Source: an uncultured Actinomycetes bacterium (lineage in GTDB: Bacteria; Actinomycetota; Thermoleophilia; RBG-16-64-13). From it: 64,000 nt of DNA. Where the stretch lies: contig CAWJDT010000001.1 in the NCBI GenBank assembly GCA_963841735.1, positions 416,001-480,000 of the forward strand. Direction: 5' to 3'. Below, piece after piece: positions 1,862 to 26,045 of this stretch; position 1 is the stretch's first letter, and the number at the start of each line of letters is the position of its first letter. The translations under genes were made by a program, and so were the position numbers. The notes under the pieces were generated by a model. That model had not been told where the DNA came from and did not search any database. It saw only the letters and a list, made by a program, of their open reading frames with translations.

Positions 1862-1957
1862 GGAGGGAGGCTGCGAATCTCTCTTCAAATTCTGGCGCTG
1901 TTTGGACGAAACACTACGGGCACGCAGGCGGTGAGTCTTGGCGCGGGGAGCCAGCTA
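1862..1957 (+). repeat. Array repeat copy 1
   Basis: TCAAATTCTGGCGCTGTTTGGACG...GTGAGTCTTGGCGCGGG; aligns with 7 other copies. Confidence 0.8.
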
Positions 1958-2043
1958 GACCTCCCGGCCAGGCATGCCGGGACGCCAGCCTAGAACCTAA
2001 GATGCACTGAGGTGCGGAACCGAAGTCGTACGGTTTCCTGATC

Positions 2044-2145
2044 ATGAAAGTACGTGACGTGATCAGACTGCTTCTCGACGACTGATGGTTCATGGTCGCC
2101 CAATCCGGAGGCCACCGAACAAGCCGGAATCGAGGTGGAGCGGCG
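2044..2145 (+). pseudogene. hicA: hicA toxin remnant (internal stop and deletion)
   Basis: MKVRDVIRLLLDD*WFMVAQSGGHR matches the intact hicA at 19851. Confidence 0.75.
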
Positions 2146-2376
2146 ATGAGAACCTTCGTGCTCGTCATAGAAGATGCGGGCAAGAATTACTCCGCTTACG
2201 CTCCGGAAGTGCCGGGTTACGTGGCCACAGGCTCATCGGAGAAAGAGGCCGAGGCGAACATGCGCACCGCGCTCGAGCTACACCTCAAGGGCATGCAGGG
2301 AGATGGCCTCCGGGTCGAGTCTCGTGACGTATTCGTGCGGCGAATACGGGTCGGTTCCGCCCGGCGAGCTTCGTAG
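2146..2376 (+). CDS. hicB: HicB family antitoxin
   Basis: VIEDAGKNYSAYAPEVPGYVATG...ALELHLKGM. Confidence 0.85.
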   Translation: MRTFVLVIEDAGKNYSAYAPEVPGYVATGSSEKEAEANMRTALELHLKGMQGDGLRVESRDVFVRRIRVGSARRAS

Positions 2377-2699
2377 TCGGTCCGCTGTGTCAGCGACCCG
2401 ACTTGTTCCAGGGGGCCGCAGCGACAAGCCCAGCGTGCCAGGATAGCGGCTCCCTAGAGGACGCCCGCCCCGTACAAGGCGATGAAGACCACCGCGACCG
2501 CCAACAGCGCTAGGCCCCCCTTGAAGCCCGGCGTGCTGTCGCGCAGCCCCAGCCACCGCCACTTCCATATGGCCTCGCGCTGCCTCTTGCGCAGCTGCTC
2601 CCGCCGCTCACTCACCTGACGACTCCTTGCCGAAGGGCACTAGCCTACTCGTCGGCGCGTGGTGCCCGCGGCTTTAGCGAGGCGGCGCCGGCCGCCGAC

Positions 2700-2724
2700 G
2701 TTCCGCGAGCTTCTGGTCGTCGAC
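2700..2724 (-). pseudogene. Very short mrr remnant (VDDQKLAE)
   Basis: 23/24 nt match to the IDGQKLAE segment of the mrr remnant at 19173-19196. Confidence 0.5.
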
Positions 2725-2853
2725 GGATCGTCGTTGGCGCTGCTCCGTGTGATCCCGAACCTGCCCTCGACGAGTTCAGCGGGGCCCTCGAGGGAGACGA
2801 TGCTCATTTGCACCGCCGTGTCGATGGACAACTTGGGCATGGGCAGTGGGCGC

Positions 2854-3216
2854 TCACGCTGGGGCGAGCAGGTCGGCCAGCAGTTCACGCGCCTCGTCAG
2901 CGTCGCCGGCGGCGACCTGCAGCTTGGCGGGACCGGTGATGAGGTTGAAACCGGTCCCGAAGCAACCGGCGCCGAAGAGATCCTGGATGCCCTCGCCTTG
3001 CACCATGAAGGGTATCTCGGCGGACTGGAGGAGCGACTTGGCGATGGCCATCAGGCCGGGGTCGCCGGTGGCCAGAACGGTCACGAGCGGAGCAGGCAGC
3101 CCGGACCGGCGCCCCAACTTAGGCTCAGGCGGCAGCTGTTCGACCAGGGGCACCATACAGTCGGAACAGCGCGTGCAACCGGGGACGTACTCAGCACGGC
3201 ACTTGGGACAGTACAT
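2854..3216 (-). CDS. DUF2007-like protein with N-terminal zinc ribbon
   Basis: MYCPKC...CSDC; AKSLLQSAEIPFMVQGE. Confidence 0.75.
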   Translation of the reverse strand: MYCPKCRAEYVPGCTRCSDCMVPLVEQLPPEPKLGRRSGLPAPLVTVLATGDPGLMAIAKSLLQSAEIPFMVQGEGIQDLFGAGCFGTGFNLITGPAKLQVAAGDADEARELLADLLAPA

Positions 3217-3242
3217 TTTAAACGCCTCGCTCAGCGCCGCGG

Positions 3243-4346: not shown

Positions 4347-4349
4347 TCG

Positions 4350-4447
4350 ACGTAGGGGGAGGTCACGTGTCTCTTTTCAAGATCTGGTGCTGTCTGGACT
4401 GGGTGGTGCGGGGGCCGGCGTCGGAGTCTCGGCGCGGGGGCTGACTA
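4350..4447 (+). repeat. Array repeat copy 2
   Basis: ACGTAGGGGGAGGTCACGTGTCTCTTTTCAAGATCTGGTGCTGTCTGGAC...GAGTCTCGGCGCGGG. Confidence 0.85.
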
Positions 4448-4599
4448 CGCCTGAAGGGTGGCCGCGAAGGCAGCTGGGGTCGCTACTTCGCACCAGGGTC
4501 GGACCGCCTCAGCGAGTCACCTGTCACCGCTGATCAGCACGCAGCGCCGCGTCAAAGGTCAGCCTCGGCCGCCGGCACAATGCGGCGCTGCGGAACCCA

Positions 4600-6104: not shown

Positions 6105-6210
6105 CCAAGCTGGCGATCGACGGGCTGGAGCGGCGATGAGACCCTTTGCGATTCCCATAGAAGACGCGGGCAAGAACTACTCCGCCTACGCTCCAGAAGT
6201 GCCGGGTTGC
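6105..6210 (+). pseudogene. hicB: hicA 3' end and truncated hicB remnant
   Basis: MRPFAIPIEDAGKNYSAYAPEVPGC, then homology ends. Confidence 0.7.
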
Positions 6211-6281
6211 GGGAGGCGCGGGGTGCGAGTCTTGGCTCAGGGTCGGCCGGGCCTCATGCCCCGCTGCTATACCCCCTATGC

Positions 6282-6983: not shown

Positions 6984-7158
6984 ACATGGGGGGTGGTCAT
7001 GTGACTCTTTTCAAGATCTTGTGCTGTTGGGACGGTGTTGTGCGGGCCCACGGGATGTGAGCCTGAGCCCGGGATCCAGCCACCTTTCGACCGGCGGCGC
7101 TACTGCGCCCCATCACCCCGTGGCTGGCCATACTCCAACCAAAGACGGAGCCGGCGAC
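6984..7158 (+). repeat. Array repeat copy 3 plus ~75 bp extension shared with copy 8
   Basis: TCAAGATCTTGTGCTGTTGGGACGG...CCAGCCACCTTTCGACCGGCG...CGGAGCCGGCGACA. Confidence 0.85.
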
Positions 7159-7272: not shown

Positions 7273-8535
7273 GTGCCGACAACCATGACAGCGCCCTCCA
7301 GCCCGATCCAACGACTACTCGCGCCACGGTTGAGCGCCGCGCTCGCCGACACGCCCGTCGTCCTCATCCATGGTGCTCGTCAGAGCGGCAAGACAACGCT
7401 CGCGCGGATGGTCGGCGAGCCCCTGGGATACGCCTATTTGTCGTTTGACGACGATGCTGTTCTTCAGGCGGCATCGCGCGACCCAATCGGCTTCGTCGGA
7501 GAACTGCCTCCGCGTGTCATCTTGGACGAGGTCCAGCGCGTCCCTGCGCTGTTCACTTCACTCAAGGCTGAGGTGGACCGGCGGCGTCTACCGGGGCGTT
7601 TCATTCTCACGGGGTCGGCAAACGTCCTGCTTGTGCCTGCGCTCGCGGATTCTCTCGCGGGTCGGATGGGCATGCTGAGGCTACATCCCTTCGCGCAGAG
7701 TGAACTGACCGGCCAGGGGCAAGGGTTCTTGAATGATCTCTTCGCGGGCCGGTTTGCCACCCGTGTCGTGGAGCGGCTGGGCGAGGAGTTGGCTCAGCGG
7801 ATCGTGGCCGGCGGATACCCGCCTGCGCTTGAGCGACGCACGGCCGCACGACGTGGCGCTTGGTACCGAGACTACGTGGACACACAAATACAGAGGGACG
7901 TGCGTGATCTATCCCGCATCCGGTCGCTGGAGATACTCCCGCGTCTTCTGGCTGTGGCCTCCGCCAACACCGCCCGCCTGTTGAACGTCAGTGAGCTGGC
8001 CGGGCCCTTCTACGTCGACCGGCAGACGATCCACGATCACATGGTGCTGCTCGAGGGCGTGTTCCTTCTTCAGCGTCTTCAACCCTGGTTCACAAACCGG
8101 CTATCGCGGCTGGTCAAGACACCGAAGCTGCACATGGGCGACACTGGAGTCGCGTGCGCTCTCCTGGGCGTGCAGGCGCCCGACCTGCAGCAGGATAGGG
8201 CTCTTCTTGGATTCCTTCTTGAGACCTTTGTGCTGCAAGAACTCCAGCGCCAGGCGAGTGGACAAGGGGAACACCACGCGTTCTTCCACTTCCGCGATCG
8301 TTACGACCACGAGGTGGACATCGTCATTGAGCGCGGCGCGTCCGCGGTGGCGGGCGTGGAAGTGAAGGCGGCGGCGACCGTCACCGACAGTGACTTCCGC
8401 GGGCTTCGACGACTCAGTGAGGCCGCGGGTGACCGTTTCTCTCACGGAATCGTCCTGTACGACGGCACAGCTATTGTGCGGTTTGGCGAGAAGCTCCATG
8501 CGGTGCCCATTCGCACCCTTTGGGAGACCTACTGA
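7273..8535 (+). CDS. AAA-family ATPase with DUF4143 / PD-(D/E)xK-like C-terminus
   Basis: GARQSGKTT Walker A, ILDEVQ, LTGSA, LAGRM, EVDIVIE...VEVK. Confidence 0.9.
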   Translation: MPTTMTAPSSPIQRLLAPRLSAALADTPVVLIHGARQSGKTTLARMVGEPLGYAYLSFDDDAVLQAASRDPIGFVGELPPRVILDEVQRVPALFTSLKAEVDRRRLPGRFILTGSANVLLVPALADSLAGRMGMLRLHPFAQSELTGQGQGFLNDLFAGRFATRVVERLGEELAQRIVAGGYPPALERRTAARRGAWYRDYVDTQIQRDVRDLSRIRSLEILPRLLAVASANTARLLNVSELAGPFYVDRQTIHDHMVLLEGVFLLQRLQPWFTNRLSRLVKTPKLHMGDTGVACALLGVQAPDLQQDRALLGFLLETFVLQELQRQASGQGEHHAFFHFRDRYDHEVDIVIERGASAVAGVEVKAAATVTDSDFRGLRRLSEAAGDRFSHGIVLYDGTAIVRFGEKLHAVPIRTLWETY

Positions 8536-8618: not shown

Positions 8619-8646
8619 CTACTCAGAGAAGTAGTCGGCGTCGATC
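8619..8646 (-). pseudogene. mrr extreme C-terminus remnant (IDADYFSE*)
   Basis: Typical Mrr tail IDxDYF; abuts repeat copy 4. Confidence 0.55.
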
Positions 8647-8647
8647 G

Positions 8648-8722
8648 CTTCAAGATTTGGTGCTGATCGGCCGGGGTCGTGCGGCAGACGGGGGGCGTGA
8701 CTCTCAGACCGGGAGCAAGCTA
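8648..8722 (+). repeat. Array repeat copy 4
   Basis: TTCAAGATTTGGTGCTGATCGGCCGG...GTGACTCTCAGACCGGG. Confidence 0.75.
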
Positions 8723-8779
8723 CACGTGGCATCTGGCCTTGTAGGCCCAGCAAATCTGCTCCAGCATGGTACGAACACC

Positions 8780-9550
8780 TGGTCTGCTCCCGTCGCGAGC
8801 GCAGCAGCGCACACAGGCATCCGCCAGGGTCAGGGAGCCGTCCTGTCCCGTGGAGCCACCGAGCACCGGCAGCCACGAACCCTCGCCCTGCGGCACGTTC
8901 ACCTCGGCCACCGAGCCATCGCGCCGCGTCACCCGAGTCTTGCCCGCGGGAGCATTGCGCACGCACGTGATGGTGGGATAGGTCACCAGCTCCCCGAAGG
9001 TATCCTCGGGCACCAGGTGGATAGCTCACATGGGGCCGGGCCGCCGCAGCGGACCGGCGCTGTCCACGTAGAGATACTTCTCGGGCGTGATGAACACCAG
9101 CCGGCCCCCGGGAGCCAGACCGGCGAGCGCCTGCTCGAAGAAGAGCATGTACAGGTCGAACCGGCCGCGTGCCGTCGCGAAACCGGCCCGGTAGTGCTGC
9201 TTCTCGGCCTGCGACAACCCCGTGATGGCCACGTAAGGGGGATTGCCGCCGATGAAGTCGTACTCCCCGGGCTCGCTCAGCAGATAGTCGGCGTGGCGTA
9301 TCTCGACAGCAGGGTGCCCATCGAACTTGCAGCGCAGTACGGTCACATGGCGAGGGTCGGACTCCACCCCGGTGACTCGAGGCACAGGGAGGTCGCGCGT
9401 CGCGCACCAGCGGATGATCCCCTCGATGAAGGCTCCGGCGCCGCATCCAGGATCGAGCACGCGGTCATGCGAACCGGGCGGCCGCTCGCGGAACAGCAGC
9501 TCGACCATGCCGTCGACGGTCTCGGTCGGTGTCGGAACGAATCCCTTCAT
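8780..9550 (-). pseudogene. N6-adenine DNA methyltransferase (Eco57I/TaqI-like), truncated and frameshifted
   Basis: VLDPGCGAGAF, GNPPY, DLYMLFFE, FITPEKYL; continues in another frame and breaks off near repeat copy 4. Confidence 0.8.
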
Positions 9551-9621
9551 AGTGAGTCCATCGTACACGACGGAGTGGACGGGGCTGCGAGCGACTGCCC
9601 TCTCACGGACCACGGCCGTGG

Positions 9622-9708
9622 ACGTAGGGAGGCCGTCAGGCTCTGGTCAATATCTGGCGTTGTTTGGACGGGGTGACGCGGGAGACGTGGGGTGAGTCTG
9701 AGCGCGGG
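9622..9708 (+). repeat. Array repeat copy 5
   Basis: ACGTAGGGAGG...TCAATATCTGGCGTTGTTTGGACGG...GTGAGTCTGAGCGCGGG. Confidence 0.75.
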
Positions 9709-9900
9709 CGATCAGATACGGGACCAGCAACAGCGACGACCCAGTGGTGGTGGTGATCATCATCATCATCCTGCCGACGACTTGTTGATGATGATGATGT
9801 TCTTGGTGGTGGTTGTGGTGGTGGCGACGACGGCGTTGCGCGTCATCATGACGATGGCGATGACATCCTCGCGGTTATCCTTGATGCATGAGCTTTGGCC

Positions 9901-10056: not shown

Positions 10057-11550
10057 TCATGTCAAAACGACCTCATAGCGCGTGGCGGGCCCTGAACCAG
10101 AACGCCGGAGCAATCCTAGCTCCGCCAAATGCCCCAGGTGGTACAGGGCGGCTCGGTCGCTCAGACTCATGGCCTCAGCGTACGATCGGGTCGTGACCAA
10201 CTCCTGCTGAGTGATCCACTGCCACCCCCGCAGCTCTGAATCACTTAGGGTCTTGGCCACGTGTTCTTCCAGCCCTCTCACTGCTGATTCGGCAAATCGG
10301 TAGAGCGTGAGGGCAAGATAAGGAGGTTCCCACCTGAATCGTGGCAAAGGTAGCGAGAACTCTACAGCTCCGTCCCTTAACGAGCCGAGGCCAAGGCCTT
10401 GTTCTTCCGCCATCCCCATGCGGGCAAACACAAAGTGAAGCACCGGGTTGCGGCTCAATGTGGGCGCGGAAAACTTCTGCATCTGCTCCAAGGTGATAGG
10501 AGGCGTCGGCGCTCCGGGGCTTCGGATCACAATGATGTCCGAATCAATAGCAATCTGGCACTTCGCGCCTTCAATGGAATAGTCGCGATGAATCAATGCG
10601 TTGACGACCGCTTCTCGGATCATTTCGAAAGGTAGTGCAGAGCGTTCAACTCTCTGCGTCCGGGTCCTCTCGAACACGTTCGGGAGCTTGTTCCGCAACC
10701 ATTGTTCGAGCAACTCCGGTATGAGCACCGCAGGCTCGTCGAACTCCTCCCGCTCCTTGTCACCGTTCGGGTAGGCTATCGAAGCTAGGAGTCCGGCCTG
10801 ACGCATCGCCCGACGAGGCTCCTTGCCAAAGAGCAACATGCCAAAGCCCGTCGGAACCATTCCGGCCGCCTCTTCCTTCAATAGGCCCTGCTGCAGTAGG
10901 CGCCGCTTGAACTCCGGTGAATCGGCAGATTCCGCGATTCCGGCGCGGCTGCGATACACCTCGATGGCTTCCGCAGAGAAGTCCGCCATAACCCCGGCCT
11001 GAAGCGGGTTCTCCAGAGGCGACAGAACAATCGCGGCGGACTCCATCTTTGCCTCGACCGCCCGCTCGTTGGCCTGCCTCAAGAATTCCTCGTTCTCCCT
11101 TTCGATGATGACCTGCAGGTCCCGGTCGAACATGTGAACCTCGATCCCGCTGGTCTCCAGGTACTGGATCCCCTTTCTAGCGACCTTGGGATCCGGGTCC
11201 TGAATGCCGACCCACACTGCCTTGAGTCGAGCAAGGCAAATGCGCTCGGCGCAGCAGACCTTGGGATTTCGTCGCGCACCTGGTGCGCACGGCTCTAGTG
11301 TGGCGAAGAGCGTTGACCCATCGAGTTTGGCGTCGCGGTTCTTCCGCTCCAGCAGAGTGAACTCCGCATGGTCCCCTTGACGCAGCTCGCCGCGGTAGGC
11401 TGTGTCGATTGTTCCATCAGCTCTTACCAGCACAGCCCCGACCCTGGGAGTGGCCTTGCCGTCGGATCGTGGTTCCTGCACAGAGTGGCGCATGACCTCG
11501 ACGGCGAGCTCCATCATCTCCCGCGGACTGAACCCTCCCTTGGCGTTCAC
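10057..11550 (-). CDS. Zn-dependent deaminase domain fused to HATPase_c_4 (RecG C-terminal-like) and wHTH
   Basis: HAE...TLEPC...C deaminase motif; REAVVNALIHRDY, SPG, SRNP, EQGLG; start approximate. Confidence 0.85.
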   Translation of the reverse strand: MNAKGGFSPREMMELAVEVMRHSVQEPRSDGKATPRVGAVLVRADGTIDTAYRGELRQGDHAEFTLLERKNRDAKLDGSTLFATLEPCAPGARRNPKVCCAERICLARLKAVWVGIQDPDPKVARKGIQYLETSGIEVHMFDRDLQVIIERENEEFLRQANERAVEAKMESAAIVLSPLENPLQAGVMADFSAEAIEVYRSRAGIAESADSPEFKRRLLQQGLLKEEAAGMVPTGFGMLLFGKEPRRAMRQAGLLASIAYPNGDKEREEFDEPAVLIPELLEQWLRNKLPNVFERTRTQRVERSALPFEMIREAVVNALIHRDYSIEGAKCQIAIDSDIIVIRSPGAPTPPITLEQMQKFSAPTLSRNPVLHFVFARMGMAEEQGLGLGSLRDGAVEFSLPLPRFRWEPPYLALTLYRFAESAVRGLEEHVAKTLSDSELRGWQWITQQELVTTRSYAEAMSLSDRAALYHLGHLAELGLLRRSGSGPATRYEVVLT

Positions 11551-11596
11551 TGGTTCAACCTCTCCCCCCATGTGCCGGCACAGCGAGTTCGTACTT

Positions 11597-11875
11597 CGCG
11601 CACCAGCGGATGATCCCCTCGATGAAGGCTCCGGCGCCGCACACCGGATCGAGCACGCGGTCATGTGGACCGGGCGGCCGTTCGCGGAACAGCAGCTGGA
11701 CCATGGCGTCGACGGTCTCGGGCGGTGTCGGAACGAATCCCTTCATGGTGAGTCCATCGTACACGACGGAGTGGACAGTCCGGCGGATGTGGCCTTGGTC
11801 TGCGCGCCGACGGAGCACAGAGCTCGAACAACTCAGTCTCCGCTGGACCTGGGGCGGTTCACTTGGCCGGTCCGT
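11597..11875 (-). pseudogene. Second methyltransferase 5' remnant with upstream region
   Basis: MKGFVPTPPETVDAMVQLLF...VLDPVCGAGAFIEGIIRWCA, nearly the same as 9401-9580. Confidence 0.8.
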
Positions 11876-11893
11876 GGAACCGGTGAGCCGGGG

Positions 11894-14720: not shown

Positions 14721-14810
14721 ACGAACTGCCTCGTACTCTCCGTCCACGTCGATGCCCGGGGTGTTGTCCCGCGCGACGCGGGGCGGGTTCACGTTGTCGA
14801 TGTACATTCG

Positions 14811-15035
14811 AGGTCGAGCACCCGGTCATCCGGTCCGGGCGGCCGTTCGCAAAACAGCAGCGCGACCATGGCGTCGACGGTCTCGGGGCGGTGTGGGGAA
14901 CGAATCCCTTCATAGTGAGTCCATCGTGCACGACGGAGTGGACGGTTCGAGGGCTGTGGCCTTAGTCTGCGCGCCGATAGGGCACAGAACTCAAACAACT
15001 CAGTCTCCATTAACCCTGCGGTTCACTGCTGGACG
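14811..15035 (-). pseudogene. Third methyltransferase 5' remnant with upstream region
   Basis: MKGFVP../ETVDAMVALLFCERPPGPDDRVLD; upstream region matches 11789-11865. Confidence 0.75.
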
Positions 15036-15036
15036 C

Positions 15037-15064
15037 GGGCGAACTTGATCACGATGGGCGGGCC
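15037..15064 (-). pseudogene. Short flxA remnant (GPPIVIKFA)
   Basis: GGGCGAACTTGATCACGATGGGCGGGCC versus 13564-13591 and 26222-26249. Confidence 0.6.
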
Positions 15065-15072
15065 CCCGCCGG

Positions 15073-17395
15073 TCAGGGTTCGCGGGCATGAAGCAGGCCA
15101 AGGGCAACAGTCACCACGACCGCGACGAGCACAAAGGCAAATGGCGTATAGCCGAACCCCGCGATCTCGGGGAGTCCGGTGTCGTGGGCGAACGCCAGCC
15201 CGGCGATCGAAGCAACCGTGATCGCCCCGGTGACCGGGAGGAATGCAGCCGTGCCCGTGACCACCCGCCGGGCGGGTGTCCGGCCGGACCTAACCATGAG
15301 CAGCCGAAACTCCCGTTCTTCAGAAACAAGCTGGAATCCCAGAGCGACGGCCATCAGGGCCACGAGCAGTGCCGCTCCGTAGCCGAGCATCTGCGAAAAC
15401 GCATAGAAGCCGCCATCCTGGTAGCCGGCGTCGATATCGATGAACGCCGCCGGCGCAATGGACCTGGCGAGGCCTTCCAGCTGACCCTGATCGGCCGCGG
15501 ACAAACTGGTGAAGTCGAGCAGCGCGATATCTCTCAGCTCATTGGGCTGACCTCCATAGCGGGCGAGGCTGTCAACCACAGCGTCCGGAAACCCCCCGCC
15601 ACCGCCCAGTAGTGAGGTCGGCACGGCGGCGACCGTGGCCAACGGGGTGAGCTCTCCCTCGCGCAGCCGGGCTATCACAACTTGCCCGTTCTCGATGAAG
15701 GACGGGTCTGCAAGGACGGAGTGCTCCTCCGGACGAGCATCGATCGTCCAGACTTCGGCCGGCTCGCCGATGGAGCCCCAGGTCGAGCCGTTCTCAATAG
15801 TAAGCTCGGCATCAAGGCCGGCGAGGATACGCTCCTCGTCAAGCGGCGGCAACATCGCTTCAACGGCCCGAGCGATGGACGGTCTGACAACGAGAAGACC
15901 CGTAGAGTCAAAGCGGGTTGACATCTCGTTGCCGGAGTTGGCATCAGCCAGCTGCCGCAGGACCTCGAGAGTGGTAACTTCTCGCACGGCCAGCGAACCC
16001 GCGGGCTGGAACGGACGATACCAGGCCTCCTCGATCTTGCTCCCGTGGGCGTACTCCGTCGCGGCGATGCTAGCCGCGAGAGCGATGACAGTCAGTATGA
16101 GAATAGCGGGCAGCGCCCGCTTTGAGCGCTGCCTATGGACGTATGCCAACGCGCGCAGTCTGGACCGTCGTGTCGCGGCCGCAAGCGCGACCGGGATGGC
16201 GAGTGATATCGCGGCTGAGCCGGTGAGCGCGAGCCACCAGTTGATGTCGGCGTACTCACGCGAACGCGGAAAGGCCACCATAGCCACGCCGGCGCAGCAC
16301 AGTACCAGCGCGATCCAGCCAGTTGCGCGCGGCAGTGGCCGTCTTCGTAGCGCTCGCTCGACAGCGGGTCGTCGCGCCGGAAGCACCGGAAGCAGGAGCG
16401 CGACGCACACGAGAACGAGGACGAAGATAGCTGTGGCCGGCCGTAGATCGAAGGGAACATCAAGCCAGCGCATACCCCACGGCCGCCCCGAGAGCCGCGG
16501 CGCCAGAAGAAACGTGAGCGCAACAACTATCCACCCTGCAAACGCGCCACACGCCGCCGAAAGCGCGCACGCCACAGAAACCACAGCTCCGGCCTGGCGC
16601 TCTCGCATTCCCGCTGCCACCAGCCCGCGATGCTCCACTGAGACCCCGGAATTGAACAGCATGACCAGAAAGGCGAACAGGCATGCCGCGATCACCAAGA
16701 ACGCCGGCCTGAAGTACGCGGACGAAACCCAACGGGCCTTGGTCGATCACCTCTGCCGCGAGCATCGTCTCAAAATCGGCCGAGTTGGCCGTGTAGCCTG
16801 AATCGCCCAGATACTCCGGTATGTCATTGACAAGCCACGCCGTAGGTTCATCCACGGTGGGGCCGGCAAGGCCGGCGATGGCAGCCCACTGGGGGCGCGT
16901 GGGCAGCACAAATATGCCCACTACTTCGAACACCTCGGCACCGATCTGTACCTGGTCCCCCACCGATACCGCCAGTCTGGCCGCGGCGGTTTCCGAGAGC
17001 GAGACCTCGCTTGCCGAGGAGGAGTGACTACCCGACACGAGCAGGCCAAACTCGGCGACGCGGGAATCGGCCGAGAAGGCGTCCAAGCCCACCCGGGAGC
17101 GGCCGACATCAGCGGAGCGGCCGCCTGCGTTGACTCGAACCTCGTCGGTCTGCACAGCGACGGCGCCTGTCACAGTGGGGACGGCTTGATCAGGGACTAT
17201 CTGAAGTCGGAACCCGCGATAGGTGGACTCTACCGACGCCCGCGTCTGTTGCAGCGTAGTCGAGTACGACATGTCCGCCACGGCAAACGCGGCAGCTAGG
17301 CACGTGGCAACGATCGCCACACCGAGGCAACGGAGCCGCTGCCAACCCATCAACCCCCAGGCCAGGCGGCAGACACGAGGCCAAATGCGGGTCAT
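15073..17395 (-). CDS. FtsX-like ABC transporter permease (split by a frameshift near 16700)
   Basis: Multiple TM segments, periplasmic domain (EVSLSETAAARLAVSVGD); follows an ABC ATPase. Confidence 0.65.
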
Positions 17396-18036
17396 TGGAC
17401 CGCGCTCGTCACTCGACCATCACGGATGTGGACTACGCGATCTGCCAGACCAGATACCAGAGGATCATGCGTCGCCACCAAGACGCCCACCTGGTGCGTT
17501 CGGGCGATCTCGACGAGCAGTCTGCCGATCTGGACACTGTTGTCCGCGTCGAGCGATCCGGTCGGCTCATCGGCCAACAGGTAACGCGGGCGCGTCGCGA
17601 CCGCTCGGGCTATCGCCACTCGCTGCTGCTCTCCGCCCGACAGGTGCACCGGGAGTTCCTTCATCTTGTCTGACAGCCCCACCGCCTTGAGTGCGCGATC
17701 AGAGCGGTCGGCGATGTCCTGAGGGCCGATCCGCTCAAGCAGCTCTACCGCGAGCGACACGTTGGCGTGAGCGTTGATAAACGGTACAAGCCGGTAATCT
17801 TGGTATATCCGAGCCAGCCCCCGCGTGCGCTGCTTGCCCCCCACCCGTTCGCCGTCGATGGTCACTTCTCCGTCGAAGCCGGGAAGATCACCCGAGAGAA
17901 CTCCGAGGAGCGTCGACTTGCCCGATCCCGAGGGACCAACCAACGCAGTGACCTCGCCCTCGCGCACGCACAGCGAAATGCCCCGCAAAACAGGAGCTGT
18001 CCCATATGCGAACTGCACGTTCGACGCCTGAATCAC
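17392..18036 (-). CDS. ABC transporter ATP-binding protein (LolD/MacB-like)
   Basis: GPSGSGKST, LSGGEQQR, LADEPTG, ATHD. Confidence 0.92.
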   Translation of the reverse strand: MIQASNVQFAYGTAPVLRGISLCVREGEVTALVGPSGSGKSTLLGVLSGDLPGFDGEVTIDGERVGGKQRTRGLARIYQDYRLVPFINAHANVSLAVELLERIGPQDIADRSDRALKAVGLSDKMKELPVHLSGGEQQRVAIARAVATRPRYLLADEPTGSLDADNSVQIGRLLVEIARTHQVGVLVATHDPLVSGLADRVVHIRDGRVTSAVQ

Positions 18037-18982: not shown

Positions 18983-19030
18983 AGCATCTGACTCCGTAGG
19001 ACTTTAGTTGGACTCTGGCGCGGAAAGAGC

Positions 19031-19105
19031 GTGCAAGATCTTGTGCTGTTCTGGCGCGGTTTATTGGCCGGCCGGGACGCGAGCCTTAGCCCTCGCGCAA
19101 CTCAC
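19031..19105 (+). repeat. Array repeat copy 7 (most diverged)
   Basis: GCAAGATCTTGTGCTGTTCTGGCG...GCGAGCCTTAGCCC. Confidence 0.65.
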
Positions 19106-19149
19106 ACCATTGCCAAGCTGACGCCGTTCGTTCTGCTACTCCACCTTGA

Positions 19150-19650
19150 GCTCGACTCGTGGTCGATCATCAGTTCCGCGAGCTTCTGGCCGTCGATGAG
19201 GGCGATCTTGTTGTCGATCTTGCCGACGTAGTCGCGCGCTTCGGCCGAGAAGCACGAGGTGGTGATCATGATCCCCTTCTTGGAGCTGGTTTCAGAACGA
19301 AGCCTTCGCCACCCGGCGACATACGGCCGCCGAGTCCGCGCTCAGCGGAGGGATCCGTCGTCCTCGGTCGCGCCCGTAGCGCCGCTACGAACGCTCCCTG
19401 CGTCCTTGGCCCTCTCGCGCCGATCGCATCCTGATGGCGGGGCGTCATTCTGAAACGAGTTCTTGGCCCGGATGTAGATGATGTCCGGCCCCTGGCGATC
19501 CTTGTTGATGATGCCGTCGATATCTTCATCGCCGCTGCGCCCGATGGCCCGGCCCGCGTCCTGGCGGCTGCCTCCGTAGCCCATCTTGAGCAGCAACTCC
19601 ACGACGAGTCTCTCGAGCAGGCTGGGCGAGACCGCACTTGCCTGTGCCGA
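19150..19650 (-). pseudogene. mrr: Mrr restriction endonuclease catalytic-domain remnant interrupted by a MITE
   Basis: LERLVVELLLKMGYGGS...GRSGDEDIDGII...IYIRAK / KGIMITTSCFS...IALIDGQKLAELMIDH. Confidence 0.85.
19283..19462. mobile_element. MITE (180 bp), related to the 13841 element, flanked by TTG direct repeat
   Basis: GAGCTGGTTTCAGAA / TTCTGAAACGAGTTC (13/15 IR); shared internal GTCCTC.GTCGCGCC..TAGC.CCGCTA..ACGCTCC.TGCGTCCTTG. Confidence 0.8.
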
Positions 19651-19652
19651 GT

Positions 19653-19826
19653 ACGTCGGGGGTGTCACGTGTCTCCGTTCAAGATCTGGTCCTGTTTGGA
19701 CGGTGTTGTGCGGGGACGCGTGTTGTGAGTCTGTGTCCAGGAGCCAGCCACCTTTCGACCGGCGACGCTGCCGCACCCTTCGCTCCTAGGCTGGTCATAC
19801 TCCACCCTAAGGCGGAGCCGGCGACA
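19653..19826 (+). repeat. Array repeat copy 8 plus extension shared with copy 3
   Basis: ACGTCGGGGGTGTCACGTGTCTCCGTTCAAGATCTGGTCCTGTTTGGACGG... Confidence 0.85.
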
Positions 19827-19850
19827 GGATGCGACAAGTAGGGTATCTTC

Positions 19851-20051
19851 ATGATGAAGGTACGAGACGTGATCAGGCTGCTTTTCGAAGATGGCTGGTT
19901 CCAGGTGAGCCAGTCGGGAAGCCACCGCCAGTTCAAGCACCCAACCAAGGCCGGCCGGGTGACAATCGCCGGCAAGCCGGGACACGAGATCGCACCGGGG
20001 ACGCTGCGCAGCATTGTGAGACAAGCCGGCATCAAGGTAGGACAACCATGA
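19851..20051 (+). CDS. hicA: HicA mRNA interferase toxin
   Basis: DGW...GSHRQFKHP...RVTI...GTLRSI. Confidence 0.9.
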   Translation: MMKVRDVIRLLFEDGWFQVSQSGSHRQFKHPTKAGRVTIAGKPGHEIAPGTLRSIVRQAGIKVGQP

Positions 20052-20275
20052 GAACAGTCGCGATAATCATCGAAAGAGCAGGTCGCAACTACTCTGCCTA
20101 CGCCCCCGAAGTCCCCGGCTGCATAGCCACCGGAGCGTCGGCCAAGGAGGCCGAGGACAATATGCGGAGCGCCCTCGAGCTTCACCTGAAGGGCATGGCA
20201 GAGGACGGCCTCGAAATCGTGTCTGATGACGTCGTGGTACGAAAGGTCACACTGGCAACCAGGTGTAGAGAATGA
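20048..20275 (+). CDS. hicB: HicB antitoxin
   Basis: NYSAYAPEVPGCIATG; ATGA overlap with hicA. Confidence 0.9.
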   Translation: MRTVAIIIERAGRNYSAYAPEVPGCIATGASAKEAEDNMRSALELHLKGMAEDGLEIVSDDVVVRKVTLATRCRE

Positions 20276-20314
20276 CAGATGCCGAGGGTGCATGGCTTGA
20301 CGCACTGATAGCCT

Positions 20315-21380
20315 CGAAGGAAGACGAGCACCTCGAGTTCAAGGAGGCCAAGAACCACTTCGACTTCGAGAAGCTCGTCAAGTACTCGCGGCCCTAGCGA
20401 ACGAGGGTGGTGGCCACACTGTGCTTGGTGTGACGGACGTCCGCCCGCGCAAAGTGGTAGGGACCACCTACTTCAACCCCGTGGAACGCACCACCGCTGG
20501 TCTGGTCCAACGACTCCACCTCAAGATCGAATGCACCGAAGTGGCTCACGCTGGCGGTAGGGTTCTTGTGTTCACTGTGCCCCCACATCCTGTCGGGCTT
20601 CCTATCGAGTACAAGGGAGCCTACTGGATGCGAGGCGGGGAAGAACTAACTCCGATGACGCCCGACCTTCTGTGCCGGATCTTCTCAGAAGCCAGTGTGG
20701 ACTATTCGTCGGAGGTCTGCAGTAGGGCTAGTCTGAAAGACCTCTCTGATACGGCGATTACTACCCTTCGGGTGCGTTGGGCCGCGAGGTGCACCAACCG
20801 GAACATACTGGATGCTTCCAAGGATCAGCTACTGGAGGATTTGGGGCTACTTACGGATGGGGCAGTAACCATCGCAGCTCTCGTACTGTTGGGTAGTCAG
20901 GATGCACTTCGGCGCTACCTCCCACAAGCCGAAGTCGTCTTTGAGTACCGTGCGAGCGAGTCATCACTACCATTCCAGCAACGACGGGAGTATCGCGAGG
21001 ACTTTCTGTCCTTTGGCGAAGACCTATGGGAGACCATAAACCTGCGCAATGAGATCTACCAGTACCAAGAAGGCTTGTTCATGCGCGAGATCCCGACATT
21101 CAACGAGGCCGTCGTTCGTGAGGCTGTGCTTAACGCTATCAGCCATCGCGACTATCGTCTCGCTGAGTCCATCTTTGTACGCCAGTACCCCCGCAAGCTC
21201 GAGATTGTGAGTCCAGGCGGATTTCCTCCGGGAATCGAAACGTTCGAACATCCTATGGCGCCAGTCTCCCCGCAACCGGAGGATTGCCGAAGTGCTTGCC
21301 AAATGCGGCCTCGTGGAACGGTCCGGACAAGGCGCGGACCGGATGTTCGAGGAGTGCGCGAAGGAGAGCAAACCATTCCC
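20315..21380 (+). pseudogene. Schlafen/AlbA_2 + HATPase_c_4 protein, frameshifted and 3'-truncated
   Basis: EDEHLEFKEAK...ALANEGGG...LGVTD; REAVLNAISHRDY; SPGGF; ERSGQGAD. Confidence 0.8.
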
Positions 21381-21570
21381 AAGAATCCGCGTAAAGAATC
21401 AGCGCCCCGATGGGGTACCCCCGGACCAATGAGGCGACCAACTGCATCTTCTGGTCATCTGACCATACCGGCGTGCGCTGGAACCTGGGAATCTCCACGA
21501 TGAACTCGCCGGCGTGGTTACGCGCATCCACCAGTTCTCGAACCTCATGCGTGCGCTGCTGTGTGCCCAA
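21380..21570 (-). pseudogene. DUF262 (ParB/GmrS-like) N-terminal remnant
   Basis: IPRFQRTPVW...SLVRGYPIGALIL. Confidence 0.75.
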
Positions 21571-21762
21571 GTCAGAACCCCTTCACTCAAATGCGTCCCG
21601 AAGCCACTCGACTCACGCTAGCACACAGGGGGGACGGCATCCGTTGGGCGGCCCGAGTTCGGCTCGAAGACGTTGCCCAAGTCGAAGCTCAAGCAGCCGC
21701 ACCCGTGCCTTCCTTCTCGTACCACGCCTGGTCAGGCTGTCTTGAGAGTGCAGTTCGGTGAC

Positions 21763-21816
21763 GATGCCACACTTCACGCGTTTCTCGAAGGCGGTGTAGG
21801 TCTGCTCGGGGGTAAG
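21763..21816 (-). pseudogene. Short flxA remnant (TPEQTYTAFEKRVKCGI)
   Basis: Aligns to flxA TPEQTYTTLEKRMKCGI at ~26145-26198. Confidence 0.8.
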
Positions 21817-23554
21817 GTAGTCCAACGCCCTTGATAGTCGGGGCCGTCTGACTTCGGCTTGGTACGCGGCTCATCAATCTGAATCGTCAGCGGAATTGGG
21901 AAGTCGGCACCGATGATTGCTGCTTCTCCGGGCCGCAGATTGGGTAGAAATGCGGAGGCCGCACGATCAATCTCCCCGCAGGCGCGCTCCACCACTTCGC
22001 GGTCGCTGTCGTTGGTCAGCCGATGCACAATCAGTGTGCCCATTTGGCTGAGCACCCCCTCTGTGATATCACGAGGGCGTTGGCTCGCAAGACAGATATT
22101 TAGACCGTACTTGCGGCCTTCTTTGGCGATCAACTCGAAAGCATCCAGCTTGGCCGCGTAGTCCTCGGCCCCAATTTGTCGGCCCAGGAAGTTGTGGGCC
22201 TCGTCTACCATGACGAGCGTCGGTCGGTCTCGAAACGTACCCGCCCTCGCTTTTGTCAGCAGGTGACGGCCAATGACATTCGCGATGATCTCGCGCGCAT
22301 GATACTCATAACCGATGCCCCCCATGCAAATCCGCAGAAGCCTCACGTCTCGGGCAACGAACTCGTCGATTAGGGAGGCTCACCCGGCGCTCGATCAGCA
22401 TCGAAGACACACTCAAATGCCGGAGATGTCAGGACTGCGTTGATACGCGAGAATAGCCGCGAGACAGTTCGCATAGCTTCCGTCGTCAGGTCCGCCCCAT
22501 CTTGTCGAATCCGGCGCCCTCGAATTCCCCCCATTCGGCCACACGCATTCCTGCTCGATCTGGGCCACCAAGTGGCAGACATCAAATGGCTGTCGCGGGT
22601 CGTCAAGCAGCGACGAAACCTCCGGGGCCAGCTCAGCATCCAAAACCGGCTGCTTGAGTTGATCGTGCTTGCGAATCTTCCCGTCGGGTGCAAGATCGGG
22701 CCGAATCGTTGCTAGTCGCAAGCTCCTCATGGCCGCCCGCAACTTCGGCCCCTGCACCTTCCCAGCAGGCTCAAACAGCGCCACGAAGTCCGATTCCAAG
22801 AAGCTCGTCGGCGGGAGGGAACACGCCACCGAACTCTGACCCTTTTCGAACGGCTCGCCCAGATGACAGTGGGAAATCCCATCACCGTCGAACTTTCTGT
22901 ACTCCCCGGTGGCGTCAATCAGAATAAGTTTCGCCTTGTGCCTGATGCATTCCTCGATGATTCGCGCCATGGTCCAACTCTTACCGCCCCCTGTCGTCCC
23001 CAGAATCGCGCAGTGACGTCCGAACAGGCGCTCTGGCTTCACGGAGACGAGACTTTCGTGGGCAGCGTCAATCGCCCCAGATTCAGAGTGACTGGTTCGT
23101 CGCCAACTCCCTCTGGCTCCATCAGTCTAGGCAATAGCGCGATGAATCGATGAGGCGCTGCGTAGATGCGATCCCCGAGACGCGGGTAGGCATCAACGCC
23201 CGGGGTGACCAGCAGGTCATCCATACGAATTGAACCGAGAAGCTGGACTTGTCCCAGTGCGTCCAAATCGCTGCTGCCAACGAAATCGCGCCCGACAGAG
23301 CGGCGCTCCGGTTCGTGAAGACGAATCTCCTTGATACGGCCCAGGAGCACGCTGCGCTGTCCTTCTATCAAAACGAATTCGCCGACCTCGCCACGCCCAT
23401 ATCGCCCGCCAGCGAAATGGGCACCGCTGGGCTGACCAGCCTCGCTTAGGTTGACGCCTACCGTCCATGCGGTCACCGAACACGCGACACCGAGGAACAG
23501 TTCAGGACGAAGAAGCCCCTTGGGAAAGGCTTGGTCAATGTCGAGCTTGCTCAC
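21774..23554 (-). CDS. HerA/DUF87 helicase-ATPase (split by frameshifts)
   Basis: HAS barrel; RHCAILGTTGGGKS; DATGEY; VDEAHNF; IAKEGRKYG; SQRP; HRL.N..D. Confidence 0.88.
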
Positions 23555-24738
23555 GGTTCCCTCGCCACGCTTCTGATTGCTTGCACAAGAGCGTCCGCGG
23601 GCGTCAGCGACTTCAAATCAGGGAGCATCGGGGCAAAATCCTCGAATGACGCTTCTACAAACCAAACGTCCTCGCCGCGCGCGCCAAGTTCGAAAAGGCG
23701 CTTCCAGTACCGATTGCCGTTGGTCTCGTTGGCCCTCGCCTGAGGATCCACCACGACAAGTCGCAAGTGCGGATTTGACTCCACCGCGGCCAACAGCGGT
23801 TCGGCCAGATGATTGTCATTAAAGCCGAAGCCGAGAGCGAGGAGACAGGTGCTCGGTTCGCGAACCGCGGCGAGGTATTGCGCCATTGCCTCGAGATGGG
23901 GCTGAACGAAGCTCTGCTGATATTTCCCGATTGCCGGATAGATCAGGCAGGCCTCCGCAGGTGTTGGTCTTTGTTCCTCGTAGATCGTTCCGTCATCACG
24001 CCTTGCCCAGTTGACCGATCCATGTAGCTTGTACAGTATGAACACCCCCTCAAGGTAGTGCCCAAGATCATCACTGGTGCGCGGCCGTCGGATAATGTCG
24101 TAGGTGAAGAAGCGCGGATCGTAGCGGCGAGGAGCGGCGAAAGAGAATCCGTCCAGCGCAACCCCGCCCAACTCAGCGGCGGCGCGTTCAAAGCACAGGT
24201 CATAGTTCGTGGTGAACACCCGCAGACGCTGATCTCGGACCCGGCGACGGGAGAGCCGGTGAAGAAGGGTCTTGTGAGTCCCAAGGAGAGTTGGGTCAAG
24301 AAACGCCGTGCACTCATCGAGAATCACCTGCTTGCTTGACTCGAGGAACTTGCTGACCACCGAATCCTGCTTGACCTGTAGGAAGGCTTCAACCTTGGAC
24401 AGAAAGAGTTCGATGTCGTGATTCGTAAGATCATGGTTGACCTTCTCAGCCACCGCTTTCGCGCTCGCTGTCGCCGCTTCACCGACTGCGCCATTCCACA
24501 AATCCATCATTGAGGGACCACCGGCAGCGCGCGAACACCCACACCCGGCGAGGACGACAAGGTTCCGCATCTGCACGGAAGCGAGGAGCACATTCTTTAT
24601 GTCATCTTGGGCCCGGCGGACCTCATCGCGCGCATTGTCGTTGGCGTCAGGAACCTTCAATCCACGCCAATGGTCGGTGCCTGGTGCTCGAAATGCGGGC
24701 TGTTCTGGCCCCTGTTCTGCTGCCGACATGTTCCCCAA
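23551..24738 (-). CDS. SIR2-family protein (SIR2-HerA defence pair)
   Basis: LAGCGCS, FTTNYD, YKLHGS, GFGFNDNH. Confidence 0.9.
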   Translation of the reverse strand: MGNMSAAEQGPEQPAFRAPGTDHWRGLKVPDANDNARDEVRRAQDDIKNVLLASVQMRNLVVLAGCGCSRAAGGPSMMDLWNGAVGEAATASAKAVAEKVNHDLTNHDIELFLSKVEAFLQVKQDSVVSKFLESSKQVILDECTAFLDPTLLGTHKTLLHRLSRRRVRDQRLRVFTTNYDLCFERAAAELGGVALDGFSFAAPRRYDPRFFTYDIIRRPRTSDDLGHYLEGVFILYKLHGSVNWARRDDGTIYEEQRPTPAEACLIYPAIGKYQQSFVQPHLEAMAQYLAAVREPSTCLLALGFGFNDNHLAEPLLAAVESNPHLRLVVVDPQARANETNGNRYWKRLFELGARGEDVWFVEASFEDFAPMLPDLKSLTPADALVQAIRSVAREP

Positions 24739-24908
24739 CTCCTATTTCCGCTTCCTACACCCCCCGGGACTTGCGTGGACCATCGTCGCAAACCCGGCTC
24801 GAGCACAACGGGCCAATCCCAAACGTGAGCGGCTTACGTGCATCGCAGCAACCATGCGGCAGAGCGGATTGCTCCATGAGCTTGTTCGACATCAGCGGGT
24901 GGGGTGAG

Positions 24909-25691
24909 CTATGTGCCATCTTGAGCGAGAATGTCGTCCTCTTGGTCTGCGTCAATGACGTCCTCGACTTGGCCAGTCTTGAGTTGGATTTGTGCCTGAT
25001 GAAGCGAGTTCGCGTAGTACTCTTCTGCGGCCTTCCATGATCGGAAGATGCGACATCTAATCTTTGACACGAAGATCTGCGGTTCCAGGGCGAGGAACAG
25101 ACCCGTGGTACTGGCAATGCTATCGAAAATCCGTCGTCGGAGTGGGTGATCGTGGGGAAGAAGGCCAGGATTGAAATTGTCAAACACGAAGTTCCTAATC
25201 GACTCTTTCACTCCCCGCCAAATGCACGCTTCCACCTCAACCGTCTTCTTTGTAGCCCTCTTGTCATACTGCAGGGGTGGACCAGCAGCGTTCATTTCCT
25301 TGAGCAGAGCTTTGGAGCCTTCGAAGAAGAGTGATTCCGAAATCAGCACCACGTCAACGTCAGATGTCTCCGCGAATGGCTGACCGAACTTGTGCGCAGA
25401 CGGGCTGAATCCCAGCCGAGCGCTGCCCACAATGCACACGTCTTGCGAACCCAAGCCAAACTCAGAGGCGACCTGTTCCTTGAAGATGATGTACTTCATG
25501 GGACTGCTGTGAAACACGAATGGAGTTCCGTCGAGAAGAAAGACCCGCGCGAGGATTTGATGATGATCCAAGCCGACTACCAGAGAGCGGAAGACCTCGG
25601 CTTCGGGAATCCCCCCGGCCTTAATGGCACTGAGGAGTTTCGCTTCCTCACCTTGCTTGTGACCGCCCTCAGCTGCCATCGCCACCCTCAA
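24909..25691 (-). CDS. Hypothetical protein with Pol-beta-like nucleotidyltransferase motif
   Basis: IVGSARLGFS...SDVDVVL. Confidence 0.65.
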   Translation of the reverse strand: MRVAMAAEGGHKQGEEAKLLSAIKAGGIPEAEVFRSLVVGLDHHQILARVFLLDGTPFVFHSSPMKYIIFKEQVASEFGLGSQDVCIVGSARLGFSPSAHKFGQPFAETSDVDVVLISESLFFEGSKALLKEMNAAGPPLQYDKRATKKTVEVEACIWRGVKESIRNFVFDNFNPGLLPHDHPLRRRIFDSIASTTGLFLALEPQIFVSKIRCRIFRSWKAAEEYYANSLHQAQIQLKTGQVEDVIDADQEDDILAQDGT

Positions 25692-25872
25692 TTGCCATCG
25701 CCATCGCCTCCACCGTCGGCCAAATAGTGGCCATCAGCCCTGCGCGAGCCAACCGGGGCAACACTTGGCGCCTACACACCACCCGTCCCGAGTCTCATGG
25801 TGCCCCCCTCCAGCGTGACCGAAGCGTGGCGCGGGAACTGGGAACACTCACCGCAGTTTCATGACTATACAG

Positions 25873-25901
25873 ACTGTATCTGTCGCTCCACGGCGCGTCA
25901 A
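25873..25901 (-). promoter_or_regulatory. Candidate sigma70 promoter reading into the array
   Basis: TTGACG-N17-TACAGT, overlapping palindrome ATACAG-A-CTGTAT. Confidence 0.4.
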
Positions 25902-25934
25902 GCCGCTACGTAGACCCTACCTCTCAAAGAATGA

Positions 25935-25956
25935 GGGGGCGCCTTTCGGCGCCCCC
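25935..25956 (-). terminator. Intrinsic terminator after the hdr-flx operon
   Basis: GGGGGCGCC-GAAA-GGCGCCCCC followed by TCATTCTTT. Confidence 0.75.
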
Positions 25957-26045
25957 AAAGGAAACGAACAAGGATTTGACCAGAGCCCGGCGGTTGAACG
26001 TCGACTCCGGGCGTCGCACCAAGAGGCGGGTGTACCTGGCCGCCC

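Follow-up and report, generated by a model that had tools for sequence, protein, structure and literature searches.

A clustered, oriented DNA repeat that may mark joints between exchangeable accessory modules in islands of uncultured Actinomycetes

Islands of defence and toxin-antitoxin genes are mosaics, and what sets their joints is rarely visible. Can such joints carry a defined sequence? The question is raised by a 64-kb stretch of DNA (the window) from an uncultured Actinomycetes bacterium, namely C1:416001-480000 of the source genome G000, which comprises 2.8 Mb in 8 contigs (genomes, contigs and loci are denoted G, C and L). Within the first 20 kb of the window lie eight co-oriented copies of a repeat of ~90 nt, here called R1, and none lies in the 38-kb core. 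A first reading of the letters alone (the sequence-only reading) had reported these copies, seen unrelated accessory cargo between them and truncated genes near them, and proposed a recombination site or homology anchor for cargo, an integron-like capture locus. The count and orientation were reproduced by independent means. A sequence-only covariance model, run with filters off, gives exactly eight strong matches in the window, all on the plus strand (45-69 bits, E 3e-13 to 1e-20), and no score above 8 bits across 26-64 kb. When a profile is made from the eight copies, it recovers them with E-values of 1e-16 to 2e-24. If up to three mismatches are allowed, the 22-mer core occurs six times in the window versus zero times in 100 shuffles, and repeat finding followed by MAFFT alignment of the eight sites leads to a consensus equal to the earlier one.

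All eight copies are on the plus strand. Copy 1 (1872..1965; model match 1874-1962; 59.8 bits) lies between the start of a ROK gene and a decayed hicA/hicB pair, copy 2 (4364..4455; match 4366-4451; 61.3 bits) between TIR and Kelch-GYF genes, copy 3 (6998..7090; match 7001-7085; 69.2 bits) upstream of an AAA-DUF4143 gene and copy 4 (8637..8730; match 8639-8729; 56.1 bits) 100 nt past the stop of the same AAA-DUF4143 gene. Copy 5 (9634..9725; match 9638-9719) adjoins the start of an N-terminal methyltransferase (MTase) fragment and copy 6 (14346..14437; match 14348-14433) is found 31 nt from the truncated 5' end of a partial flxA copy. Copy 7 (19020..19112; match 19026-19108; 45.2 bits) is the most diverged of the eight, and within copy 8 (19667..19758; match 19668-19753), at 19671, begins homology to an R1-hicAB unit of the relative G004. 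Copy 3, together with ~90 nt of its right flank, is homologous to copy 8. The G-rich half of R1 also has a weak, partial match at 6202..6251 (plus strand; 16.3 bits, E 3e-4), possibly due to chance. A Pfam search bears out the unrelated cargo (TIR, Kelch, HicAB, AAA-DUF4143, MTase fragment, deaminase, ABC and Mrr), and the partial flxA copy and the MTase fragment (195 aa) bear out the truncations. The statement that no recombinase or transposase is visible in the window holds for the part searched, as none of the 147 open reading frames (ORFs) of at least 65 aa in 1-26.1 kb has an integrase or transposase domain in Pfam.

R1 consists of two conserved blocks, CAAGATCTGGTGCTGTTTGGAC / CAARATCTGGYGYTGTTKGGAC and GTGAGTCT, spaced ~27 nt apart in a unit of ~65-95 bp. 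In an alignment of 60 copies from 10 genomes, the information-rich blocks read CAA..TCTGG.G.TGTTTGGAC and, ~27 nt on, GTGAGTCT, with a G-rich spacer between them and a weaker GC.CGGG tail after the second block. Conservation is block-wise across genera, a pattern that fits what would be expected of a recognised site. The same alignment contains neither terminal inverted repeats nor a target-site duplication. R1 could give rise to a structured small RNA or to a short peptide: in the copies at 4377, 7011 and 19679, GTG or ATG and a frame of 19-26 codons through the core come after a Shine-Dalgarno-like GGGGGAGG. However, the reading frames through the core vary between copies, by which R1 was rejected as a small ORF, and RNAalifold returns zero consensus pairs and no covariation. 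Minimum free energy z-scores against dinucleotide shuffles are +0.11 and +0.21 for the two strands of 61 copies, i.e., no excess folding. A hairpin around GAGTCT looks plausible by eye but failed a stem permutation test (54/57 copies), the mean best stem being 3.81 within copies versus 3.94 with shuffled partners. Rfam 15 has no match at the gathering score, the best overlap being a Na+ riboswitch model with 25.7 versus 40.5 bits. We consider an RNA or peptide product extremely improbable. A G-quadruplex was likewise rejected, as the four-tract motif is present in just 6 of 61 copies. Since R1 shows no structure in four tests and its frames are not conserved, it is best treated as a double-stranded DNA motif; the element is lineage-specific, oriented and non-palindromic.

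The source genome has ~21 R1 copies in about five clusters: one copy at 303 kb (minus strand), two at 387-390 kb (plus), the eight of the window (plus), nine at 1523-1579 kb (six plus, three minus) and one diverged copy on contig C5. The sequence-only reading had set R1 apart from elements that scatter genome-wide in both orientations; the clustering in few islands agrees with this, the occurrence of R1 in both directions in its other clusters in this genome does not. A lagging-strand bias was rejected as well, because plus copies prevail to either side of the skew minimum (~660 kb), and the repeat is not the upstream region of one duplicated gene. Among 61 genomes, with the source genome counted, 17 contain R1, every one of them from the same family. 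It occurs in 16 of the 36 other family members, in 10 of 15 in the genus and in 0 of 24 from seven other families. The absence from five genus genomes is weak evidence, as all of these are assemblies of 150-370 contigs. Arrays recur in relatives: G012 has six co-oriented copies 760-1225 nt apart and G002 and G014 have three each, holding mostly type II toxin-antitoxin pairs or fragments (PIN-MazE, ParE, Doc-RHH, HigB-like/helix-turn-helix (HTH) and HicB modules). The nearest relatives of the window copies are found in other genomes, at 89-90% identity including the flanks, while identity among the window copies themselves is only 61-82%; therefore, the array is not a recent local duplication.

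What ties R1 to module boundaries is a comparison of breakpoints between genomes. Homology blocks of at least 300 nt were delimited in 29 island loci (515 kb, 65 R1 copies), with one genome per species. A number of 25 out of 376 distinct block ends lie within R1 +/-40 nt, where 8.2 are expected from coverage (~3x chance), so that breakpoints do fall at the repeat above chance, on which the sequence-only reading had made its own proposal depend. The R1-associated ends gather at two edges, with 10 at -12 to +20 and 12 at +62 to +105. When 61 copies with 700-nt flanks are compared all against all, many pairs match over the left flank and R1 only, or over R1 and the right flank only. For instance, the single R1 of G004 (L013:1584) matches one place in the source genome from -699 to +92 (L004:14697; 93%) and another from +21 to +793 (L004:11574; 83%). 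Similarly, the R1-hicAB module of G004 matches the window at 89% from 19671, the 5' edge of R1, onward, with different left flanks, and in G013 a unit of MTase fragment plus R1 is 90% identical to the window as far as 9702, ending at R1 +68/70. The 303-kb locus is collinear between G000 and G004 (82-85% identity), but 104 nt in the former correspond to 2827 nt in the latter. This longer stretch encodes Phd-PIN and an old yellow enzyme (OYE)-type reductase, and one end of the indel lies directly after the GAGTCT of R1. AAA-DUF4143 has R1 on both sides in G000 and G009 with differing upstream R1 sub-types, and its conserved module (7181-8536) stops short of both flanking repeats. The enrichment of breakpoints at R1 edges is thus observed, which by itself does not prove R1 to be the cause.

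The reading we favour is that R1 marks the joints between exchangeable toxin-antitoxin, restriction and defence modules in a few variable islands. That it would cause the exchanges rather than ride along, and what would catalyse them, we infer. A role as a portable recombination joint for adding and swapping accessory modules is a tentative proposal, quite possible but somewhat short of an even chance. Modules would be gained, lost and swapped through recombination between R1-bearing DNA molecules: a circle or fragment with one R1 would recombine with a chromosomal R1, placing its cargo between two co-oriented copies. The catalyst would be either the general recombination machinery of the host, for which the short conserved blocks would serve as substrate, or an unlinked protein with specificity for these blocks. 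Joints would then be expected at the 5' edge of CAAGATCTGG or 0-10 nt past GAGTCT, and the islands would additionally grow by Campbell-type events that leave partial flxA, dnaE and DUF362 copies.

Several results weigh against this proposal. No recombinase adjoins R1 or is co-distributed with it in the islands scanned and the genomes of relatives. The R1 copies of one genome share at most ~22 identical bases, which is marginal for RecA-type recombination, and homogenisation among copies is not seen. A majority of 351 out of 376 breakpoints lie away from R1, many of the counted junctions are mere ends of coding conservation, and the baseline is crude and the related genomes are non-independent. 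Junctions occur at either edge and at varying position (+62 to +105) with no single crossover point, a scatter that fits a site-specific enzyme poorly. Hence, of what the sequence-only reading had proposed, the recombination site or homology anchor gains from the breakpoint enrichment and loses by the missing recombinase, the breakpoints elsewhere and the two edges. Given that no recombinase is linked, orientation is mixed, most breakpoints lie elsewhere and no crossover point is fixed, its integron-like capture locus stays a conjecture.

The position of R1 relative to genes bears on two other explanations. Of 48 copies at 15 loci, 41 are intergenic and the other 7 fall within ORF calls (outside the window, genes were placed approximately by a simple codon-usage ORF caller). 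Four of the 7 (in G000, G001, G012 and G026) are in frame inside a dnaE loop, a family-specific insertion of ~150 residues that separates the finger and HhH domains of Pol III alpha; the insertion is absent in another family and its R1 portion is missing or decayed in several genera. In family f1 (e.g., L007:6351-8570, L020:774-5189), this loop is largely of low complexity, with conserved ends YDPFAQAWTAEHGWGLTEADL ... PRAPRARGGVEPGACLAP and a hypervariable middle that carries R1 in frame. A derivation of R1 from dnaE was rejected, as the homology stops at the ~80-nt unit. These positions recall a small non-autonomous mobile insert, like a miniature inverted-repeat transposable element (MITE) or a Rickettsia palindromic element, that settles in gene-poor spots of tolerant islands, the arrays reflecting target preference. 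With its breaks at either edge, R1 indeed behaves like a discrete unit. Apart from the copies in dnaE, one lies inside a WecG-type gene call in G014, one in G002 exactly fills the 76-nt gap between two convergent stop codons, the 303-kb copy of the source genome sits among ordinary metabolic genes, and a true MITE, R2, is co-resident in R1 islands. Yet, R1 has neither the terminal inverted repeats nor the target duplication of a MITE, no empty R1 site was found, no Y1 transposase or reverse transcriptase (RT) gene was found in the source genome, and the copies of the insertion sequence (IS) IS110 that were examined are not at R1. Moreover, strong clustering and co-orientation are unusual for MITEs, and the orientation is independent of replication direction. 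Altogether, we regard a mobile insert as rather unlikely. Rickettsia palindromic elements are palindromic and dispersed and can sit in frame inside an essential gene; R1 shares the in-frame position (dnaE) but is neither palindromic nor dispersed. R2, a MITE of 165 nt, on the contrary, does have inverted ends (13-22 nt; GACTCGTTTCGAA...TTCGAAACGAGTC in the window copy). It occurs in the window at 13840..14006, inserted cleanly in the partial flxA copy, and at 19325..19466 (no strand assigned to either), with further copies at L006:13838-14001, L007:1426-1590, L005:16376-16505, L021:778-903 and L075:17091-17207, some of which sit at the ends of truncated dnaE copies.

R1 might also be a cis-acting expression element that moves with cassettes, i.e., an operator, mobile promoter, insulator or Rho-type terminator. 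Promoters reused apart from their genes are described in PMC3575422. The block-wise conservation resembles that of protein-binding sites, units of R1 plus ~100 nt lie 90-190 nt upstream of hicAB (twice) and of AAA-DUF4143, and the latter is fronted by a different R1 variant in G009. Where R1 lies between tandem genes, these run antisense to it in 17 of 23 cases, so that transcripts would read its C-rich strand. However, the intergenic placement as a whole (7 convergent, 11 divergent and 23 tandem) is near random expectation. A co-oriented gene start lies downstream of R1 in 17 of the 41 intergenic copies, while 7 of the 41 are situated between two gene ends and one copy is translated inside dnaE. 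The conserved blocks show no -35/-10 or sigma-54 spacing by eye, and R1 contains no terminator hairpin. An expression element is unlikely on this balance.

The genome offers a known cassette system with which R1 can be confronted. G000 encodes an integron integrase (IntI; TIGR02249 484.5 bits versus a cut-off of 265), and canonical attC sites (TCTAAC...ACGTTAG, ~90-105 nt) lie beside this integrase and its paralogues, with sixteen in G001, nine in G012 and seven in G013. A profile built from G012 finds nine attC in G000, at C1:813-816 kb, C5:146-149 kb, C6:26-28 kb, C1:1360 kb and C1:390-391 kb. Complete integrons, with co-oriented attC arrays downstream of the integrase, are seen in G000 at C1:809235-816000 (L102, L104), C6:25800-32600 (L105) and C5:146-152 kb, and further ones in G012 (L106), G013 (L107) and G001 (L108); the surveys in PMC4889954 and bioRxiv 10.1101/2022.02.28.482270 report no complete integron in the Actinobacteria genomes they cover. 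A small, integrase-less cassette array in G000 (C1:390195-392255; L002:12195-14255) has at least four attC with PIN-RHH and ParE-antitoxin cassettes.

Could R1 be an unusual substrate of the integron integrases of these genomes, attI-like or a secondary site, and the window a non-canonical cluster of attC sites lacking integrases (CALIN)? Besides the presence of IntI, two contacts point that way. The final attC of the small array has a complete R1 8 nt from its GTTAG end (C1:390.2 kb), and on the far side of the array a partial R1 is broken off right after CTGTT, the two being oppositely oriented. The 2.8-kb insert of G004 meets R1 via a 13-nt attC-end-like string, which occurs 7 times in the G000 genome. 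Against this stand the attC arrays on the intI side of G001, G012 and G013, in which no R1 is found, and the window, which has no attC by profile, no CTAAC-N35-96-GTTAG pair and, in R1, no hairpin. The gene intI lies 375 kb from the window array, and just 2 of 62 R1 copies touch attC-like ends. Over 22 family genomes, 6 have both R1 and IntI, 5 R1 only, 5 IntI only and 6 neither. Because intI-side arrays lack R1, the window lacks attC and the two are unlinked in their counts, R1 arrays are not integron arrays, and a role as IntI substrate is highly unlikely. A further reading takes R1 as the site of a hairpin-less gene-capture system beside, and independent of, classical integrons. Its enzyme would cut at both R1 edges and insert kb-sized toxin-antitoxin or defence modules, an insertion would duplicate the repeat (as CRISPR adaptation does) or exchange R1-bearing circles, and co-oriented cassette arrays with no resident recombinase would result; we hold such a system to be distinctly unlikely. 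The remaining probability falls to R1 as a functionless relic.

The sequence-only reading had advised looking for a recombinase that co-occurs with the repeat; none was found linked to it. The 446-aa tyrosine recombinase considered as a partner is the integron integrase itself, which is not co-distributed with R1. The source genome encodes a single large serine recombinase (584 aa), within an integrative element (G000:C5:260700-267700; L058:4724-11662) with an FtsK/TrwB-like ATPase, Replic_Relax, an N6/N4 methylase and an HTH protein. A tRNA-like 3' end of 22 nt, found at three other places in G000 too, marks where the element ends. Although a diverged R1 lies 17 nt past the recombinase gene, this tRNA-like end intervenes, the G001 homologue abuts tmRNA/smpB, and homologues occur in 2 of 15 genus genomes with R1 not nearby; the enzyme was rejected as partner. 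The same holds for AAA-DUF4143, which was not found in the R1-positive genomes G001 and G002. A Y2 search in G000 is uninformative, as its control gave no match anywhere. There are six IS110-family genes in G000, of which five near-identical copies were examined (98.7-99.5% over 1.6-1.7 kb; C1:810678-811760, C1:403272-403697, C1:1356160, C5:150986 and C6:30990). No R1 match occurs at the places of these five, so that IS110 was rejected as targeting R1. Four of them directly follow an integron integrase gene or remnant, at its conserved C-terminal coding end, and the copy at C1:1356160 has only an attC ~3 kb away; IS110 may be an insertion sequence that targets the integrase end or attI.

How does R1 relate to known repeat systems? 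Like integron arrays and CALINs, R1 arrays consist of co-oriented repeats (~60-140 nt in integrons) at ~kb spacing with unrelated, often toxin-antitoxin genes between them, and both may lie far from any integrase. Unlike attC, R1 has no RYYYAAC/GTTRRRY ends and no hairpin (the sequence-only reading had rightly noted the missing GTTRRRY ends and hairpin); its cargo lies in either orientation, its arrays are separate from the true attC arrays of the same genomes, and IntI does not co-occur with it. The exclusion of CRISPR arrays by that reading (near-identical repeats of 25-50 nt, spacers of 25-70 nt) also stands, given ~90-nt repeats that diverge as stated above and are spaced 646-5320 nt apart. 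Repetitive extragenic palindromic (REP) sequences and their composites (bacterial interspersed mosaic elements, BIMEs, and REPINs) are palindromic, genome-wide and associated with a REP-associated tyrosine transposase (RAYT), whereas R1 is clustered and hairpin-less in a genome with no Y1 transposase. In tandem composite islands, such as the staphylococcal and enterococcal cassette chromosomes or tRNA-side islands, direct repeats delimit cargo blocks and recombinase-less remnants are common; the att repeat derives from the target gene, the recombinase is encoded in some units, and partial copies of the border gene accumulate. R1 islands resemble these in their repeat-delimited cargo and partial border-gene copies (flxA, dnaE), but R1 has no relation to the border genes, and the R1 islands scanned yielded no integrase. 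An actinobacterial dispersed repeat can serve as integration site, as the REP13E12 repeats of Mycobacterium tuberculosis are attB for the phiRv1 serine integrase; in G000, by contrast, the sole large serine recombinase adjoins a tRNA-like 3' end, and its G001 homologue tmRNA. For Neisseria, it has been proposed that arrays of repeats favour recombination of the genes beside them (PMC1797815). As far as that account describes them, the NIMEs (intergenic mosaic elements of Neisseria, dRS3/RS arrays) and minimal mobile elements share with R1 the non-coding repeat arrays, small gene modules that vary among strains at syntenic positions and lack of a dedicated recombinase, but NIMEs have 20-bp inverted dRS3 repeats, are found genome-wide and depend on natural transformation, while R1 is one asymmetric unit of ~90 nt in about five clusters in an Actinomycetes lineage. 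The closest described parallels are the neisserial repeat arrays with minimal mobile elements and integron CALINs, from which R1 differs in structure and distribution.

A second process, separate from R1, concerns the borders of the islands. The window array is bordered on the left by a ROK-family regulator (470..1798, minus strand) and on the right by the core gene for a PyrK/FlxA-like flavoprotein (26046..26951, minus), both assigned by Pfam. The flxA partner gene is present in 11 of the 15 other genus genomes. A comparison of flxA islands between genomes, akin to the one between strains that the sequence-only reading had suggested, shows the border in six other genus genomes (G001, G004, G008, G010, G013 and G014) with R1 on the flxA contig, 1.8-29 kb away, always in the same orientation toward flxA with its 3' end facing the gene, and with different island content in each. 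The flxA-bordered island is thus a conserved hotspot. Displaced from the border gene, a partial flxA-like copy (13388..14315, minus) lacks the first 143 nt, has a 167-nt insert and is 91-96% identical to the border gene. Corresponding islands contain further partial 3' copies (three in G010, two in G014, one each in G008 and G009), all of which run to the stop codon with differing 5' cut points; R1 is absent between those of G010. In that genome (L078; G010:C11:544001-564000), a small LuxR/GerE gene occurs twice (4728-5455 and 7231-8012) with a flxA C-terminal fragment directly behind each, two of the three flxA fragments being fused behind the LuxR gene. As gene and fragment recur together, the duplicated unit covers both. 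Three tandem dnaE 3' partial copies lie behind the intact gene at G000:C1:1565476-1579811 (L006, L007), with cargo genes and IS21 between them; G014 (C6:67-79 kb) has several as well, and N-terminal fragment copies of DUF362 and aldo-keto reductase genes adjoin R1. R1 itself has no extended similarity to dnaE or flxA. Such partial border-gene copies are what Campbell-type single crossovers through a shared gene piece would leave.

The rest of the cargo, with families from Pfam unless noted, fills the intervals between the repeats. Between copies 1 and 2 lie hicB (2092-2376, plus), DUF2007 (2854-3216, minus) and TIR (3243-4052, minus) genes. HicAB occurs twice in the window, with one copy decayed. 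Next come Kelch-GYF (4600-6063, minus) and XRE HTH (6282-6698, minus) genes; five tandem units of ~170 nt (4672-5572; 69-72% identical) encode the Kelch blades of the 487-aa GYF-Kelch protein. Copies 3 and 4 enclose the AAA_14-DUF4143 ATPase gene (7273..8535, plus). The N-terminal fragment of an Eco57I/N6-type DNA methyltransferase (9026..9613, minus) occurs three times in the window, with shorter copies at 11555-11818 and 14805-15021, and compares with 486-496 aa in two relatives. Just right of copy 5, a run of ATC faces a run of GAT (9740-9800; ATCATCATCATC...GATGATGATGATG), forming a long inverted repeat. Further along are a deaminase-HATPase_c_4 fusion (10057-11664, minus), a DUF4411 C-terminal fragment (14443-14931, minus), MacB-like and ABC ATPase genes (16460-18036, minus) and, within 10057..18036 on the minus strand, two proteins of 451 and 541 aa with no assigned family. 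Around and beyond copy 8 lie Mrr (19342-19776, minus), hicAB (19851-20272, plus), a GmrSD N-terminal fragment (21253-21570), HerA in three ORFs (171, 209 and 190 aa; 21774-23554, minus), SIR2 (23551-24738, minus) and, within 19342..25691, a 260-aa protein with no assigned family. The region 21774-24738 has the makeup of a SIR2-HerA type defence pair with split HerA, adjoined by the GmrSD fragment.

In several genera of this family, then, a defined, family-specific sequence is found at module joints, in genomes that also have classical integrons. Since R1 and integrons occur in the same genomes, these offer a direct comparison of two ways to stack cassettes. Should R1 be an active site, it would represent a second, structurally different cassette system, in a phylum thought to be nearly integron-free. 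Even if R1 is merely a passenger, it would still be a useful marker of module boundaries in uncultured Actinomycetes from soil and water.

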